Of a stretch of DNA of 64,000 bases, positions 2 through 32,360 are shown one piece after another. Origin of the DNA: a virus (taxonomy: Duplodnaviria > Heunggongvirae > Uroviricota > Caudoviricetes). The translations under genes were made by a program, and so were the position numbers. Within the stretch, counting starts at the first letter, position 1. The number at the start of each line of letters is the position of its first letter. The notes below the pieces were generated by a model. It saw only the letters and a program-made list of their open reading frames with translations, was not told where the DNA came from and ran no database searches. The DNA lies in the IMG/VR virus record IMGVR_UViG_2880378312_000006, one strand, 5' to 3'.

Positions 2-988
2 GTGGAAGAGGTGGCGCGTCACGCTGAGGAGGCGAAGAAGAATGCCGGAGAGGCGGAGACGTCAGCGAGGAATGCCGGCATATCAGCCAGTCAGGCAGAA
101 GAGAGCGCTGCAAATGCTGACACTTCAGCAGGGGATGCATCGGAGTCAGCCCGGCAGGCGGCAGAAAGTGCAGCCGCTGCAAAGCAGTCAGAGGAGGCGT
201 CCTCGTCCTCGGCCTCTGCGGCCGCTCAAAAAGCCAGTGAGTCATTACAAAGTGCAACAGATGCTGAGTTGTCAAAAAAGACGGCAGAAAGTGCAGCCGG
301 TAATGCAGCCAGGGATGCAACGACCGCAGCAGAAAAAGCCCGGGAGTCAGCAGAAAGCGCACAGTCAGCGGAACAAAGCAGGATAGCGGCGGAAGAAGCC
401 GTAAACCGAATCCCCACCGTGGTGGGGCCTCCCGGGCCAAAGGGGGAACCGGGGCCCGCGGGTCCTCAGGGGCCGAAGGGAGATAAAGGAGAGCGTGGAG
501 ACACCGGCCCGGCAGGGGCAACCGGCGAACGGGGACCGGCAGGTGATGCTGGTCCGGCAGGCCCGCAGGGGCCGAAAGGTGACAGGGGAGAGCGGGGAGA
601 GACCGGTCTGACGGGAAATGCAGGTCCACAGGGTCCAAAGGGAGACACCGGGGCAGCAGGCCCGGCAGGCCCACAGGGACCGAAAGGAGAAACAGGTGCG
701 GCTGGCCCGGTGGGGGCAACCGGACCTCAGGGACCGAAGGGCGACCCGGGGGAGACACAAATCCGTTTTCGTCTGGGGCCGGCGAGCATTATTGAGACAA
801 ACAGCCATGGCTGGTTCCCGGGTACAGATGGTGCGCTCATCACCGGACTGACCTTTCTTGCCCCCAAAGATACCACACGGGTTCAGGGTTTTTTTCAGCA
901 TTTGCAGGTCAGGTTTGGTGACGGGCCGTGGCAGGATGTTAAGGGGCTTGATGAAGTGGGCAGTGATACAGGCAGAACAGGAGAATGA
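2..988 (+). CDS. Tail fibre protein, C-terminal part (5' end lies outside the window); collagen-like Gly-X-Y repeat region plus C-terminal tip domain
   Basis: ORF open from the window edge; translation contains long GPxGxxG repeat runs; about 98 percent identical to the C-terminus of the complete tail fibre at 58483-59796. Confidence 0.85.
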
Positions 989-989
989 C

Positions 990-1259
990 ATGAACATACT
1001 AAAAAAACTTATGCAGCGTCTGTGCGGGCACGGAAAGCATGATGACCGTGAAGACGGGGAGTTACTTACAGCACAACTGCGTCTGGGGCCGGCAGACATC
1101 CTGGAGTCCGATGAGAATGGTATTATTCCGGAGCAGGACAGGGTAATCACGCAGGTGGTGATACTGGATGCGGATAAAAAGCAGATACAGTGCGTGGTAA
1201 GACCGCTGCAAATCCTGCGTGCTGACGGGACGTGGGAAAATATTGGCGGGATGAAGTAA
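990..1259 (+). CDS. Small conserved protein (89 aa) immediately downstream of the tail fibre; function unknown
   Basis: ATG 1 nt after the tail fibre stop; near-identical copy at 59798-60067; followed by a hairpin plus T-run. Confidence 0.55.
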   Translation: MNILKKLMQRLCGHGKHDDREDGELLTAQLRLGPADILESDENGIIPEQDRVITQVVILDADKKQIQCVVRPLQILRADGTWENIGGMK

Positions 1260-1274
1260 CCCGACAGCTTCACA

Positions 1275-1300
1275 AAACCGGAGTCCGGCTCCGGTTTTTG
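1275..1300 (+). terminator. Intrinsic terminator (hairpin ccggag/ctccgg plus T-run) after the tail fibre operon
   Basis: GC hairpin followed by ttttt; same structure after the duplicate copy near 60085-60110. Confidence 0.5.
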
Positions 1301-1371
1301 TTGTCATGTAAGGCAGATGTTTGTTAAAGCTATTTAAGTCTGGAGTTTAAATTAAAATAGGGAGTTTTATA

Positions 1372-1946
1372 ATGCCGTTAAATTCGGAGATTAGATCAAG
1401 CTCATTTTTAATGGATTGAATGTCCTTCGAGCTCAAGTAGCATCTAGCGGTCGAGGGGAGTTTACATTAGGTAATGAGACTGTCAGCATTGTATTTAATG
1501 AAACCGATGGGCGTTTTCTATCCAGCGGCAGTAGTGGGGGATTGCTTACTGAGTTATTCCTTTATGGGTTTAATAACGGCCCTGAAGCTCTTCGCGATAG
1601 GATGCTCAGTATGCTTTCGGACTCAGGTGAAGCACAATCGCAAGAGAGTATTCAGGACAAAATATCTCAATGTAAGTTTCCTGTTAGTTCAGGAAATTTC
1701 CAGTGCCCGCCAGAGTCTATTCAGTGTCCAATTACACTAGAGAGACCCGAAGAAGGAGTGTTTGTCAAAAATTCAGATAGTTCGGCAGTATGCTGCTTAT
1801 TTGATTTTGATGCATTTTCTCGTTTAGCTAGTGAAGGCTCATATCATCCACTGACCCGAGAACCAATAACGGCATCAATGATTATAAGTCCTGATAAATG
1901 TGTTTATGATCCTATCAAGGGAAACTTCATTATAAAAGATAGTTAA
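1372..1946 (+). pseudogene. nleG: nleG-family T3SS effector gene with an N-terminal frameshift
   Basis: ATG at 1372 gives MPLNSEIRSSSFLMD then a stop at 1417; the rest (ORF 1416-1946, no ATG) matches the intact homologue at 60181-60756 in another frame, including the conserved C-terminal CPITL...HPLTREPIT region. Confidence 0.7.
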
Positions 1947-2285
1947 AATATTTTTCTCTGAGAGAGTATTGGCTGTCAGTAATTTGTAAAAAAACGCCGC
2001 AGACATCCAGAATATAAGAAGGTGTCTGTGGTTGGCAGGTTTCAGATGACTTGAAGGCGTCTTTATGTAAATGCATTTTTCTGTGGAGATGTTGTCGGAA
2101 AATATTGGATTAAAAACATAATCCAAGTCAAATAGTAAGTTTGTTTTTTTTGAGATTAGGTGTGTGTATTTAGAATTTTTATGATGTGTTTATTTTGTGG
2201 GGTATTTTAGAAAAAATATATTAATCCTTATTAATAATAGCTGCCATCCATTTCAGCTATTATTTTAAAATAAACAAGTTAAAGC

Positions 2286-3611
2286 TTAGACTCTTGTTTC
2301 TTGGATTATATCAAAGATATCAACATGATTTGATGGATTATGATGTGGTAAGCCATTGCTTTCGATATCGATTACCACATCCTCTGGATTTGGATGCCGC
2401 TGTCCAACAGGGATACCTTCTTCCATTGCGCGTATATCAGCACCTGTGGCATGTTCAATATCTGCTTTATTGGGGAAAATAGCTCCTTCTCTTGCGTGCC
2501 ACCATATACGAGGATAGTCAGTGAATCTAGCTACTTCAAACTCGGCCTTGTTTAAATCGGCAGCCCCCAGTGTCGCACCAGCCCACCATAAAATAGTGTC
2601 TGGCTTTAATCCAGGGGTATTATACTGTATGGCATGCCCTGCTGCTTGCCCAACCATTGCACCGATATGAGGACTTAACATTGGATCTGTACTAGCAAAT
2701 CTGGATACTGCAAATCCCCCTAAAGCACCAAGCGCATTTGCGGCAGCATTGGTAAGAACGGCATATTTAGTATTAGGGTTATCTAAATCCCACTTGAAAT
2801 GTGCGCCAAACTCCAGCCCTAGAGTTGCCTGTAATGGAGATGCACCATATTTAAAATCTGCTTCTCCCGGTCTGATAACCCACTCCTCCGTGTAATTTGC
2901 TTTCGGCCCATCAGGAGTAAGTGGTGTTTCTCCAACAAGCTTCCATCCATTTTCAGTTTTGACTATAGGAAGTTCTACACCATGATTACGAACCACTTGA
3001 GCTGTTAATCCAAACCATGGTATTGGGTCTTTTGGCTCGGTGGTTACCGTCGAAGTAGTGGCTGATGTTCCAGTCGATGCAATAGTCGACACTGCAGTGG
3101 TTGATATATTACTGTTGCTTAATGCATTTTTTAACGGGCCAGGAAGGTCTTTAAAATTAAAACCTATTTCATCATGCAGAGGGAATATCTGTAAAAAATA
3201 ATTACCTGATGTAGGATGAATATCTGGTTTTACAATGTTTAGCTGGACACCATATTTACCAGAGATGCCTGAAACGGAACTAGGTATCTCTAATGCCATT
3301 TGGGTAACATTGAATAAACCAAACATATCCAATGTTTTTTTTCCTATGGATCCTTCTTCAAGGTGAGGAGCTATATATTCGTCTAGCCCTGAGAGCAGAC
3401 CTTTATCTTTTATCAAGCTCAGTAGAGCTGTTGTTTCACCGCATTCCGGTGCATGTTGCTGTATATCATCTGGAATATTAACAACAAATCCAGCTTGGCA
3501 TCCTAGAGGTAATTCGGATTGCGGTATTTGTGTAGAGGGTATTTGTTCTGTTTGATGATGTTGATTGTTTTGTGAGGTGATTCCAGATTGTATGGTCGGT
3601 TGAATGTTCAT
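2286..3611 (-). CDS. nleA: T3SS effector NleA (EspI), 441 aa
   Basis: 441-aa ORF starting MNIQPTIQSGITSQ and ending in the PDZ-binding motif ETRV; matches NleA from recollection; AT-rich upstream region. Confidence 0.85.
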   Translation of the reverse strand: MNIQPTIQSGITSQNNQHHQTEQIPSTQIPQSELPLGCQAGFVVNIPDDIQQHAPECGETTALLSLIKDKGLLSGLDEYIAPHLEEGSIGKKTLDMFGLFNVTQMALEIPSSVSGISGKYGVQLNIVKPDIHPTSGNYFLQIFPLHDEIGFNFKDLPGPLKNALSNSNISTTAVSTIASTGTSATTSTVTTEPKDPIPWFGLTAQVVRNHGVELPIVKTENGWKLVGETPLTPDGPKANYTEEWVIRPGEADFKYGASPLQATLGLEFGAHFKWDLDNPNTKYAVLTNAAANALGALGGFAVSRFASTDPMLSPHIGAMVGQAAGHAIQYNTPGLKPDTILWWAGATLGAADLNKAEFEVARFTDYPRIWWHAREGAIFPNKADIEHATGADIRAMEEGIPVGQRHPNPEDVVIDIESNGLPHHNPSNHVDIFDIIQETRV

Positions 3612-25882: not shown

Positions 25883-26440
25883 ATGAGCACTATTACCAGA
25901 GAACGCGCGGAGATTAAATCATACATCACAGGCTTCCTGAGCGACTCGGCGCACGATAACAAGTCTTCAGACAGCCTGCTGGCTAATGTGTTTCGTATCG
26001 CGCTGGCATCACTGGAAGCAGAGCCGATAGCAATGGTAGTGCCTGATGAAATGGATTTGCTTACCTGCCATCTCGACGGTGTAACTAAAACATATGCTGA
26101 TGGCTGGAACGCCTGCCGCGTCGCCATGCTTCAGGCCGGAAACTTTCGGGAAAATAAGAATTCGTCAACCAACAATTTTCGGGAAATCTCGGAAACGTCA
26201 ACCAGATCTCCGATAACTCTGGATGGCTGGATAAGCTGTACTGAGCGAATGCCTGAAAAGAGCCAGAACGTGCTTATTTCGATGAATATCGATAGCGAGG
26301 CTGGGCCATTAATATATTCCGCACGCTATCTCGGAGGCACGTTCCGGCGCGGAGGTATAGCAGTTAGTCCGGGTAATGATCTTAGGCAAGCAACCCACTG
26401 GATGTCGCTACCAGAACCGCCGCAGGAGGTGAATCAATGA
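25883..26440 (+). CDS. Conserved prophage protein, 185 aa (DUF551-like by recollection)
   Basis: Intact ORF starting 2 nt after the upstream stop. Confidence 0.45.
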   Translation: MSTITRERAEIKSYITGFLSDSAHDNKSSDSLLANVFRIALASLEAEPIAMVVPDEMDLLTCHLDGVTKTYADGWNACRVAMLQAGNFRENKNSSTNNFREISETSTRSPITLDGWISCTERMPEKSQNVLISMNIDSEAGPLIYSARYLGGTFRRGGIAVSPGNDLRQATHWMSLPEPPQEVNQ

Positions 26441-26730
26441 CCTGGCCTGAAGCATTCACAACGGTAGGAATTGCGATGGCGGTGGCGCTGGTGGTGTATT
26501 CGATTTGCCGCTGGGGATAAAAACGGTTTGCGGGAAAAGGATAGTTAAGTAGAATTGCTGCGGGTGCTTGAGGCTATCTGCCTCGGGCATGAACACCAAC
26601 GGCAGATAGAGAAAAGCCCCAGTTAACATTACGCGTCCTGCAAGACGCTTAACATTAATCTGAGGCTCAATCCATGCTGAACACATGTAGGTTAGCCTCT
26701 TACGTGCCGAAAGGCAAGGAGAAGCAGGCT

Positions 26731-26886
26731 ATGAAGCAGCAAAAGGCGATGTTAATCGCCCTGATCGTCATCTGTTTAACCGTCATAGTGACGGCACTGG
26801 TAACGAGGAAAGACCTCTGCGAGGTGCGAATCCGAACCGGTCAGACGGAGGTCGCTGTCTTCGTAGACTACGAATCTGAGAAGTAA
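26731..26886 (+). CDS. hokD: Hok/Gef-family type I toxin, HokD-like, 51 aa
   Basis: MKQQKAMLIALIVICLTVIVTALVTRKDLCEVRIRTGQTEVAVF... matches K-12 HokD (RelF) as I recall it; overlapping mok-like frame from 26674; upstream inverted repeat ggctatctgcc/ggcagatagag and a downstream GC hairpin typical of hok mRNA. Confidence 0.85.
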   Translation: MKQQKAMLIALIVICLTVIVTALVTRKDLCEVRIRTGQTEVAVFVDYESEK

Positions 26887-27005
26887 GAGACCAGGCGGGG
26901 GAGTAATCTCCCGCCACCTCTGATGTGTCAGGCATCCTCAACGCACCCGCGCTTTACCATACTGAAAATGCTGTTTGAATGTTCATCTCTGAAAGAGGAC
27001 TATGA

Positions 27006-27350
27006 ATGAAAAAGGTATTGATTGCAGCACTTATTTCCGGTGTGTCTTTTGGCGCTTTTGCACAGCAGGGTGGTTTCCAGGGGCCAGAAGCAGAGCGTTC
27101 AACAGTAGCGCAGGCAAAAGAACTGAAGGATGATGCATGGGTTATCCTTGAAGGGAGCATCGTTAAAAAAGTGGGTGATGAACGTTATGAGTTTCGTGAC
27201 AATAGCGGGACAATTGTCACGGATATTGATGACAGCGTATGGGCCGGGCAGAATGTTTCTCCGAAAGACAAAGTAAGAATTGAGGGTGAAATTGATAAAG
27301 ACCTGAGCAGTGTTGAAGTTGATGTAAAGGCACTGAAATTATTAAAGTAA
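27006..27350 (+). CDS. YgiW/YdeI (BOF) family periplasmic OB-fold protein, 114 aa, signal peptide
   Basis: Signal peptide then GGFQGP...ILEGSIVKKVGDERYEFRDNSGTIVTDIDDSVW...EGEIDKD, the characteristic BOF pattern. Confidence 0.8.
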   Translation: MKKVLIAALISGVSFGAFAQQGGFQGPEAERSTVAQAKELKDDAWVILEGSIVKKVGDERYEFRDNSGTIVTDIDDSVWAGQNVSPKDKVRIEGEIDKDLSSVEVDVKALKLLK

Positions 27351-27471
27351 CCGCCCCTGCTTGTTAAGCCCGTCTTACTGACGGGTTTTCTGTTTGTACA
27401 TTCCGGCGTATTGCCTTACAATTCGCGCAGTCAGCCTGAACAACTGACACCTGCTGTCACCGGAGAATCCG

Positions 27472-27744
27472 ATGACACAACACATAAAATCCCACAATTC
27501 TGAAGCCGACCCGGAAATTAAGCAGGGGAGGCGTTTTCGTGCGCCTCAGTATGGCTGGTTTCACTATCTGTTCTGTACGATCGATGAGGCAGATATGCTT
27601 CAAGAGGCGTATCTGCGTCGCGGTGTCCGTGTGGAGCGGAGTCTGAACGCTGATCGTCTGACCTGGACCGTTTCTGTATATCTTCCTGTTCGTGCACATC
27701 TGCCACGGACACATGCCTGCTACCGTCAGCGCGTCTGGAGGTAA
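27472..27744 (+). CDS. Hypothetical protein, 90 aa (Rem-position gene)
   Basis: GGAGA RBS; sits where rem lies in Qin (between hokD and ydfU); no sequence-level identification. Confidence 0.3.
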   Translation: MTQHIKSHNSEADPEIKQGRRFRAPQYGWFHYLFCTIDEADMLQEAYLRRGVRVERSLNADRLTWTVSVYLPVRAHLPRTHACYRQRVWR

Positions 27745-28795
27745 TGTGCGGGTATTACTTCGACCTGTTCTGGTTCCGGAACTCGGGCTGGTGGTCCTTA
27801 AGCCCGGTCGTGAATCATTGCCAGTTTTTCATCGCGGCAGGGTGCTGGTGGAGCCGGAACCGAAAAACATGCGGGCGCTGCCATCTGGAGCGGTTCCTGC
27901 TGTTCGCCAGCCGCTGGCGGAAGATAAATCACTGCTGCCATTTTTCAGCGATGAGCGGGTGATTCGTGCAGCTGGCGGCGCTGGTGCACTGTCTGACTGG
28001 TTATTACGTCACGTGAAATCCTGCCAGTGGCCACACGGCGATTATCATCACAGCGAAACCGTTATTCACAGTTACGGTGCTGGCGCAATGGTGTTGTGCT
28101 GGCACTGCGACAACCAGCTGCGCGACCAGACCTCCGAATCACTTGAGCAACTTACTCAACAAAATCTGACAGCCTGGATGATTGACGTCATACGCCATGT
28201 AATGAATGGCACGCAGGAGCGGGAATTATCGCTGGCTGAATTATCCTGGTGGGCAGTCTGCAATCAGGTGGTGGACGCATTACCTGAGGCAGTATCGCGT
28301 CGCTCTCTGGGATTACCGGCGGAAAAAATCCGCTCCGTATACCGTGAAAGCGACATCATACCGGGAGAACAGACCGCCACCAGCATACTGAAGCAGCGCA
28401 CAAAAAATATTGCGCTACCGCCTCACACCCACCAGCAACAGAACCCACCACAGGAAAAGACGGTGGTCAGCATTGCCGTTGATCCGGAGTCTCCGGAATC
28501 CTTCATGAAACGACCTAAACGTCGCCGCTGGGTAAATGAGAAATACACACGCTGGGTAAAGACACAGCCGTGTGCGTGTTGTGGTAAGCCAGCGGACGAT
28601 CCTCATCATCTGATTGGTCATGGTCAGGGCGGAATGGGAACAAAATCCCACGATATTTTCACGCTACCGCTGTGTCGGGAGCATCACAACGAGCTTCATG
28701 CGGATCCGCTGGCGTTCGAAGAAAAGCATGGTTCCCAGGTTGATTTAATTTTTCGTTTTCTTGATCACGCCTTTGCAACCGGCGTGCTCGGGTAA
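27692..28795 (+). CDS. YdfU-like prophage protein (DUF968-type) with C-terminal HNH-like Cys/His motif; start uncertain
   Basis: C-terminal CACCGKPADDPHHLIGHGQGG...LCREHHNELH; position between hokD and rusA/Q mirrors Qin ydfU. Confidence 0.55.
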   Translation: MHICHGHMPATVSASGGNVRVLLRPVLVPELGLVVLKPGRESLPVFHRGRVLVEPEPKNMRALPSGAVPAVRQPLAEDKSLLPFFSDERVIRAAGGAGALSDWLLRHVKSCQWPHGDYHHSETVIHSYGAGAMVLCWHCDNQLRDQTSESLEQLTQQNLTAWMIDVIRHVMNGTQERELSLAELSWWAVCNQVVDALPEAVSRRSLGLPAEKIRSVYRESDIIPGEQTATSILKQRTKNIALPPHTHQQQNPPQEKTVVSIAVDPESPESFMKRPKRRRWVNEKYTRWVKTQPCACCGKPADDPHHLIGHGQGGMGTKSHDIFTLPLCREHHNELHADPLAFEEKHGSQVDLIFRFLDHAFATGVLG

Positions 28796-31029: not shown

Positions 31030-31105
31030 GGCCCTTTAGCTCAGTGGTGAGAGCGAGCGACTCATAATCGCCAGGTCGCTGGTTCAAATCCAGCAAGGGC
31101 CACCA
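31030..31105 (+). tRNA. ileZ: tRNA with CAU anticodon, ileX/ileZ-like (tRNA-Ile lysidine type, or Met), 76 nt
   Basis: Cloverleaf folded by hand: 7-bp acceptor stem ggccctt/aagggcc, anticodon loop cuCAUaa, T-loop ggttcaaatcc, 3' CCA; near-identical to E. coli ileX from recollection. Confidence 0.85.
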
Positions 31106-31205: not shown

Positions 31206-31282
31206 GCGTTGTTAGCTCAGCCGGACAGAGCAATTGCCTTCTAAGCAATCGGTCAGTGGTTCGACTCCACTACAACGCGCCA
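31206..31282 (+). tRNA. argO: tRNA-Arg (anticodon UCU), 77 nt
   Basis: 7-bp acceptor stem gcgttgt/acaacgc, anticodon stem attgc/gcaat with loop cuUCUaa, T-arm agtgg-ttcgact-ccact, CCA end. Confidence 0.85.
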
Positions 31283-32047: not shown

Positions 32048-32360
32048 TTTTTTTGTTTGCTGTTTATTAAAAACACTTCTGCATGGTGAATCCCCCTGTG
32101 CGGAGGGGCGATCAGCAACCAGGTATATGGGATAATCGCGGATTCAGGTGCTGATACTGAATTCACCGGGAGGCACCCGGCACCATGCTTTGCCACAAAA
32201 GTGTTGTTTCTGTTTTTCTCAAACTATCATCGTTATCCCTTTATTTCCGGCTGCGCATGGCGCGGCTTTTTTTTACGACCAGCCACTGGCAGATGGTCAT
32301 CCTGTGATTTGATTCCGGTTCCGGCTTTTTAACTCTGTTCCTGTACACGGGAGAAATTCG

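Follow-up and report, generated by a model that had tools for sequence, protein, structure and literature searches.

Complete hok/sok type I toxin-antitoxin locus with a downstream YgiW-like gene in the nin region of an O157:H7-type Escherichia coli lambdoid prophage

Introduction

Does a hok-like toxin gene found in a prophage belong to a complete type I toxin-antitoxin locus, or is it a remnant of the kind present in the Qin prophage of Escherichia coli K-12, and how is it connected to the gene that follows it? The question is raised by a 64,000-nucleotide stretch of DNA from a Caudoviricetes virus (IMG/VR record IMGVR_UViG_2880378312_000006), hereafter the window, whose positions are counted from its first letter. 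A preliminary description had proposed a hok-family type I toxin locus there, with a 51-residue Hok protein matching K-12 HokD and, immediately downstream, a gene of the YgiW/YdeI (BOF) family. We report that a complete hok/sok locus, followed by a BOF (YgiW-like) gene, occupies positions 26560-27397 of the plus strand. We are highly confident that it is an intact paralogous copy of hokW-mokW-sokW of the Shiga toxin 2 (Stx2) phage 933W, together with a homolog of the downstream YgiW-like gene L0136. The locus is already known, being annotated in the 933W record AF125520.1, and its toxin-antitoxin function was demonstrated in 2021 (PMC8621323).

The functional data come from the Sp5 prophage, in which HokW arrests growth and is located in the inner membrane, and sokW, transcribed from its own promoter, neutralizes HokW, partly with the aid of RNase III and Hfq (PMC8621323). 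Sp5 lysogens contain both RNAs; after addition of mitomycin C, sokW vanishes and HokW appears, in a RecA-dependent manner and about 1 h before the endolysin (PMC8621323). Deletion of the Sp5 locus postpones growth arrest by ~40 min and halves phage release, with no effect on the growth of uninduced lysogens (PMC8621323).

Results

Identity and anatomy of the locus

Phage 933W, VT2-Sakai (Sp5) and other Stx phages share the 921 bases at 26500-27420 with an identity of 98.2-98.3% across 98% of that length, and their records annotate hokW, mokW, sokW and a YgiW-like gene; the GenBank record of 933W (AF125520.1) annotates all four, the last as L0136. The block common to the window and 933W extends over 976 bp (26422-27397, 97.3% identical), and similarity stops at 27397. 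Within the hok RNA unit only two nucleotides differ from 933W, one belonging to a hairpin loop (26639) and the other to the base of the 3' hairpin (26894), and both differences from the Sp5 copy fall at neutral positions. The likeness to the 933W/Sp5 locus comprises identical Hok and Mok proteins, this two-nucleotide difference in the RNA unit, the same BOF gene, the same terminator and the same short open reading frame (ORF) of 27 codons upstream. Together, the hok and YgiW-like genes make up a single small mobile cassette, a standard element of ~1 kb in prophages of Shiga toxin-producing E. coli (STEC). Its features are as follows.

26527-26555, plus strand: predicted hok promoter, with a -10 element TAGAAT at 26550-26555 and a weak -35 element (TTTGCG/TTGCGG)
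26560-26590, plus strand: 5' end of the hok mRNA, comprising the 5' fold-back (fbi) arm and the tac hairpin, placed by inverted repeats, folds and the start of the RF01794 match
26606-26682, minus strand: sok antisense RNA gene, about 71-77 nucleotides (nt), placed by mapping of sokW and sokC and by its terminator hairpin
26689-26717, minus strand: putative sok promoter, with -35 TTGCCT at 26717-26712, a 17-nt spacer and -10 TAACCT at 26694-26689, scoring 7/12 in a relaxed scan
26674-26886, plus strand: mok, 70 amino acids, from the ORF list, 100% identical to MokW
26731-26886, plus strand: hok toxin gene, 51 amino acids, identified by Pfam HOK_GEF, PHROG 251 and identity to HokW
26894-26950, plus strand: hok 3' untranslated region (UTR), with a GC hairpin at 26894-26915 and the 3' fbi arm at 26929-26950
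26959-27365, plus strand: insertion of ~0.4 kb relative to BOF-less hokD-type loci, carrying BOF and delimited by homology breakpoints
27006-27350, plus strand: BOF coding sequence, 114 amino acids, identified by Pfam BOF and preceded by a Shine-Dalgarno sequence, GAGGA, at 26995-26999
27366-27397, plus strand: intrinsic terminator (9 pairs and a T-run) from a terminator scan, a positional homolog of the hok terminator

The toxin and the mok frame

The Hok protein matches Pfam HOK_GEF (PF01848) at E = 4.3e-23 (81 bits against a cut-off of 22), which bears out the 51-residue protein of the preliminary description, and PHROG 251 at E = 1e-32. All 51 residues are identical to HokW of 933W and Sp5, and 47 of the 51 (92%) to K-12 HokD; the reported match to HokD holds as a relationship, while the exact counterpart is HokW. 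The mok frame opens at an ATG at 26674, behind a Shine-Dalgarno sequence, GAGG, at 26663-26666, and terminates at the hok stop codon. The overlapping mok-like frame described earlier is therefore present, but it is not a shifted one: mok is in frame with hok and constitutes an N-terminal extension, the arrangement of mokW and of K-12 mokC/hokC. Both ORFs are uninterrupted.

Leader RNA and fold-back pairing

Judging by alignment, the hok promoter probably lies at 26527-26555. It scores 8/12 in the relaxed hexamer scan (9/12 for the homologous site of E138), and its -10 hexamer aligns with TACAAT/TATAAT of the P1-like, hokC and IncF hok loci. From 26562 to 26736, the leader matches Rfam RF01794 over the full length of the model, with 113.5 bits (gathering score 59) and E = 2e-26.

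The two ends of the predicted messenger are complementary, 26560-26567 (GCGGGTGC) to 26943-26950 (GCACCCGC) and 26568-26580 to 26929-26941, and folding of a 403-nt RNA brings its 5' and 3' ends into pairing (-168 kcal/mol, z = -7.4, none of 100 shuffles as good), so that the long-range inverted repeats reported for this locus are real. In a predicted 838-nt hok-BOF RNA the hok domain is still closed by the fold-back pairing (z = -5.6), which is found in both the minimum free energy and the centroid folds of the two RNAs. When the 3' arm is removed, the 5' end folds into a local hairpin, as the tac/fbi switch of hok mRNAs would predict. The arms also co-vary with those of the IncF/R1-type locus, with GGGTGC/GCACCC here and GGCGC/GCGCC there. 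Weak Rfam matches to ceN48, G-CSF_SLDE and sR2 were dismissed as chance (E > 0.1).

The antisense gene

The element on whose presence the preliminary description had staked its reading, a Sok promoter and RNA on the reverse strand, was found: a predicted transcript running from 26682 to about 26606, preceded by TTGCCT-17-TAACCT and ending in a terminator hairpin. The sokW misc_RNA of AF125520 maps to 26682->26612 and the RefSeq K-12 sokC feature aligns to 26682->26606, both on the minus strand. Sok is complementary to the mok Shine-Dalgarno sequence (26663-26666) and to the mok start codon (26674), and it ends in a long terminator hairpin closing with GGGGC and followed by UUUUCUCU (-32.7 kcal/mol, z = -6.0). 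The two promoter hexamers align with TATCCT/TAATCT (-10) and TTGCCT/TTGACC (-35) in the IncF, P1-like and hokC loci. Primers YO-421/422, used to build the promoter-less ('pro-less') sokW, replace exactly 26688-26695, eight bases that span the sok -10 element (PMC8621323). Mutation of the sokW promoter exposed HokW toxicity, which sokW supplied in trans partly reversed (PMC8621323).

The hok and sok promoters and the Sok terminator were located by homology together with the relaxed scan. A strict promoter and terminator scan of 26300-27500 called none of the three, because the hexamers are weak (3-4/6 each for sok) and the Sok stem is long and contains a mismatch.

We rejected the match to RF01794, named 'sok antitoxin', as direct evidence for the antisense RNA, since the model is written in the hok-sense orientation: it takes in the entire hok leader, as far as the hok AUG, on the hok-sense strand, and in K-12 (stretch 16400-17400) it matches the hokC strand, opposite the RefSeq sokC. 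The match therefore supports the leader and not the antisense transcript itself, and strand calls taken from RF01794 mislead.

The BOF gene

The gene directly downstream of hok was correctly assigned to the BOF (YgiW/YdeI) family, its product matching Pfam BOF (PF04076) at E = 1.9e-33 (115 bits against a cut-off of 25.8). It also scores above the thresholds of NCBIfam NF033674 (136.8 bits vs 35) and TIGR00156 YgiW/YdeI (112.3 vs 108.15), and stays below the cut-off of the YdeI equivalog model NF007471 (64.8 vs 179 bits); by these scores the protein is closer to YgiW than to YdeI. Residues 18-111 (94 amino acids) are 53% identical to chain A of the E. coli YgiW structure 1NNX (E = 3.5e-29), and the protein is predicted to adopt the OB fold of that crystal structure. 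In 113 of its 114 residues it is identical to 933W L0136, the sole change being V78I. Read directly, its N-terminus, MKKVLIAALISGVSFGAFA/QQ, presents MKK, a hydrophobic stretch and AFA as n-, h- and AxA c-regions and so resembles a Sec signal peptide.

YgiW (1NNX), YdeI/OmdA and SipA of Vibrio cholerae are BOF-family periplasmic OB-fold stress proteins, and the window protein shares their BOF domain. It resembles YgiW in the QGGFQGP motif after the putative signal sequence and differs in having one QGGFxGP copy where YgiW has two; it is also shorter, with 114 amino acids against family models of 128 and 130 positions for YgiW/YdeI, and it is phage-borne and linked to hok, unlike YgiW, which is linked to qseBC. 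Proteins of this family reside in the periplasm; they bind to porins or OmpA and confer protection from peroxide, cadmium and antimicrobial peptides (PMC6370654). The product of the window gene is presumably a secreted OB-fold protein of the YgiW subfamily acting as a lysogenic-conversion (envelope-stress) factor. A literature search by name for a phage-borne YgiW-like gene found no functional study.

Position of the terminator

In four BOF-less relatives (E138, TUM2805, PKF8 and K-12 Qin), a terminator of the form AACCCG-loop-CGGGTT with a T-run lies 8 nt past the fbi arm. Homology of the window to these loci ends at 26958 and restarts, depending on the locus, between 27382 and 27432. By inspection of the sequences, the terminator that follows BOF in the window, AAGCCCG-loop-CGGGTTT with a T-run, is its positional homolog. 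Between the hok stop and the BOF start (26886-27006), scanning revealed no terminator-like hairpin with a T-run, and promoter-like hexamers in this spacer reach at most 7/12, the chance level. The terminator does not directly follow the 3' fbi element, as 3' trimming would have it, the BOF gene intervening; the validated hokW locus has the same displaced terminator, and the deviation is therefore no argument against family membership. Judged by these breakpoints, insertion appears to have placed the BOF gene within the hok transcription unit, past the fold-back element and ahead of the terminator, so that it would probably be co-transcribed with hok. This detail of a displaced terminator was not found described in the literature consulted for this locus.

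Comparison with other hok loci

K-12 hokD (relF) of Qin is 93.8% identical in DNA over hok and its 3' UTR (26717-26958) and likewise lies upstream of a DUF968/YdfU gene. It differs in having no leader, mok start or sok, with relBE in their place, and its terminator stands directly past the fbi arm, with no BOF gene. K-12 hokD is a truncated derivative that shares only 26717-26958 with the window. A reading of the window locus as a K-12-type hokD was rejected, the leader being present and relBE absent: a tblastn search of the whole 64-kb window found neither RelB nor RelE (best E = 0.019 and 0.13), in agreement with the earlier remark that, unlike in Qin, these genes are missing upstream.

The K-12 hokC (gef)/mokC/sokC and R1/IncF hok/sok loci share the architecture of the window copy, and the alignment with it extends over the full mRNA; all of these loci match RF01794 (107-118 bits), and the Sok promoter and terminator keep their positions. 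The Sok/sokT hairpin of the window copy is 18 nt longer than that of hokC, and its terminator, compared with hokC and R1, is displaced by the BOF gene. In R1, mok lies in a different frame from hok. At the protein level, R1 Hok is 44% identical to HokW (PMC8621323).

Distribution

Full-length hokD/hokW-type loci, counted when at least 80% of a 418-nt query was covered, are present in 4028 of 5426 complete E. coli genomes and typically occupy the same nin-region slot upstream of DUF968-RusA-Q. As full-length loci are the norm, the absence of relBE is ordinary. The BOF gene is found in 546 of the 5426 genomes (549 records) and in 45 phage records, and its designation as an unusual prophage cargo was overstated. 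There are also 549 records in which a single place covers at least 80% of the combined hok and BOF query; from these equal counts, at the record level, the BOF gene always adjoins hok. In a scan of one genome per species, the BOF relatives among the matches listed are at most 51% identical and belong to Ewingella, Rahnella and others, and none of those listed has a hok gene within 3 kb.

Genomic context

Over 24.9 kb, the window is 100% identical to lambdoid prophages in O157-type genomes, and the locus belongs to the nin region of such a prophage in O157:H7-type E. coli. Gene order is int, xis, exo, dicB, repressor, cro, replication genes, DUF4014, DUF551, hok and BOF, followed by a 90-amino-acid ORF, DUF968, RusA, tRNAs, lysis genes and terminase. 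The prophage holding this locus has no stx gene. Its copy of the block is co-directional with the rightward early genes (cro and the replication genes), whereas 933W has the block in its b-region, beside attR, where it becomes co-directional with pL/int only after excision. The cassette is thus co-directional with early antiterminated transcription in both contexts, two contexts being too few for significance; this transcription is the rightward early operon here and, in 933W, that from pL through int and attP, only after excision.

Upstream of the hok promoter, a hydrophobic, unannotated 27-amino-acid mini-ORF (MTWPEAFTTVGIAMAVALVVYSICRWG) spans 26437-26520 on the plus strand, its ATG overlapping the DUF551 stop codon (ATGA). 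It constitutes the left part of the 976-bp block common to 933W, where it has the same length behind a different upstream gene and differs by six nonsynonymous and two synonymous changes. With no match in Pfam, NCBIfam or PHROG, its status as a gene is uncertain; it may encode a small membrane protein of the hok-BOF cassette. Downstream, the 90-amino-acid ORF at 27472-27744 (plus strand; PHROG 1212, function unknown) stops 2 nt short of the start of the DUF968 (YdfU-like) gene at 27746. This pair directly follows hok in BOF-less prophages, and K-12 Qin has rem there. In E. coli PKF8, one of the BOF-less relatives, the place just upstream of hok (stretch 721-3110) is taken by an AbiH-family abortive-infection gene and a 463-amino-acid hypothetical gene on the opposite strand, which suggests that this variable slot collects defence cargo.

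Elsewhere in the prophage, a DicF antisense small RNA (sRNA) gene adjoins dicB in the early-left region (19301-19352, minus strand; RF00039, 76.7 bits). Two tRNA genes at 31030-31102 and 31206-31279 (plus strand), Ile and Arg in the identical RefSeq prophage, are followed by an sRNA gene of the STnc100 family at 32052-32224 (plus strand; RF02076, 104.7 bits). Stx phages carry stx between the tRNAs and the esterase gene; in this prophage a TerB-family gene and a DUF3927 gene occupy that slot.

Discussion

A model for the expression of the locus

Fold-back inhibition, activation by 3' processing, binding of Sok at the mok start and coupling of mok to hok are all transferred from R1 by homology. 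According to this model, the weak promoter (-10 TAGAAT, 26550) would give a stable hok mRNA starting near 26560, whose 5' end would pair with the 3' element at 26929-26950 to yield an untranslatable form. Sok, made from its own promoter (-10 TAACCT) as an RNA running from 26682 to ~26606, would pair with the mok ribosome-binding site and start codon and so block translation of mok and, by coupling, of hok. Once Sok is lost, the 51-residue Hok would be made, enter the inner membrane and damage the cell. In Sp5, that loss comes with RecA-dependent prophage induction, the locus advancing lysis and doubling phage release. Given the near-identity of the two copies, we infer that expression and activity of the present one resemble those of Sp5 hokW. 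Co-directionality with early transcription would fit the dependence of HokW production on induction, and read-through at that time could remove Sok and release HokW.

Alternative explanations

Several points weigh against this picture. The sok -10 TAACCT and the hok -35 element match the consensus weakly and were not called by the strict scanner; the promoters, the Sok transcript and the toxicity of this copy are transferred from a locus that is 99.5% identical; and the 120-nt spacer before BOF may hold a Rho-dependent or otherwise unrecognized terminator, or a promoter that is not of the sigma70 type. The weakness of the -10 and -35 elements would also suit a locus that had decayed to an inactive relic of the K-12 hokD/relF kind, a toxin gene whose regulation or expression no longer works, and some K-12 hok loci are indeed damaged, Qin hokD having lost its leader and hokC being abutted by IS186. 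We nevertheless consider a relic very improbable here, as promoter, tac, fbi, sok target, mok, hok and sok with its terminator are all intact, the ORFs are uninterrupted, and only two neutral differences separate the locus from the Sp5 copy shown to be active. A different matter is whether an intact locus serves mainly another end than lysis, namely retention of the prophage by post-segregational killing or defence by abortive infection, which would be compatible with an intact copy of hokW-mokW-sokW. Relatives of the locus also reside on P1-like plasmids, the full-length relative of PKF8 has an AbiH gene beside it in that same slot of variable cargo, and R1 hok/sok, in work cited by PMC8621323, stabilizes plasmids and reduces T4 plating. 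We regard such a main role as unlikely, the sole experiments on hokW having shown an effect in favor of lysis and release upon induction and no effect on uninduced growth (PMC8621323).

That BOF is the distal cistron of a ~840-nt hok-BOF mRNA seems to us a roughly even proposition, based on comparative anatomy and on the want of a recognizable terminator between the two genes. The fuller version, in which BOF, inserted in the hok unit, would be expressed in lysogens from the constitutive hok promoter while activation by 3' trimming could not proceed as it usually does, we put forward tentatively, as falling somewhat short of even. Alternatively, BOF could be an independent 'moron' with its own promoter, the hok mRNA ending before it and the two genes being merely adjacent. 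Phage morons commonly carry their own signals, and BOF does possess a good Shine-Dalgarno sequence and a terminator of its own, as well as four weak promoter-like hexamer pairs (7/12) in 26935-27003; control of the R1 type, moreover, requires a 3' end near the fbi arm for exonuclease removal. The candidate promoters are, however, no better than chance, 26886-27006 contains no terminator-like hairpin with a T-run, the terminator after BOF is the positional homolog of the hok terminator in BOF-less loci, and each E. coli record with BOF has a single match covering BOF and hok. An independent moron is possible, and we find it slightly harder to credit than insertion into the hok unit with expression from the hok promoter.

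Implications

This copy adds one more instance of an annotated and experimentally tested toxin-antitoxin locus. It also recalls that the 'hokD' of K-12, which serves annotators as a reference, is the truncated exception, while full-length loci with sok are the norm in E. coli prophages. An Irish case-control genome-wide association study of STEC found 'ygiW_2' and the mokC-like 'group_5720' to be jointly and interdependently associated with haemolytic uraemic syndrome (PMC11950266). These markers are probably the two adjacent genes of this cassette (26674-27350) on Stx2a phages, and the presence of hok and the YgiW-like gene in one cassette probably explains their interdependence.

If BOF rides on the hok mRNA, the route of activation by 3' trimming would be hindered, the published phenotype of the hokW-sokW::km deletion may partly reflect polarity on BOF, and knock-outs of hokW-sokW would have to be designed as non-polar. 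In that case a toxin-antitoxin promoter would drive a stress-protection gene in lysogens.

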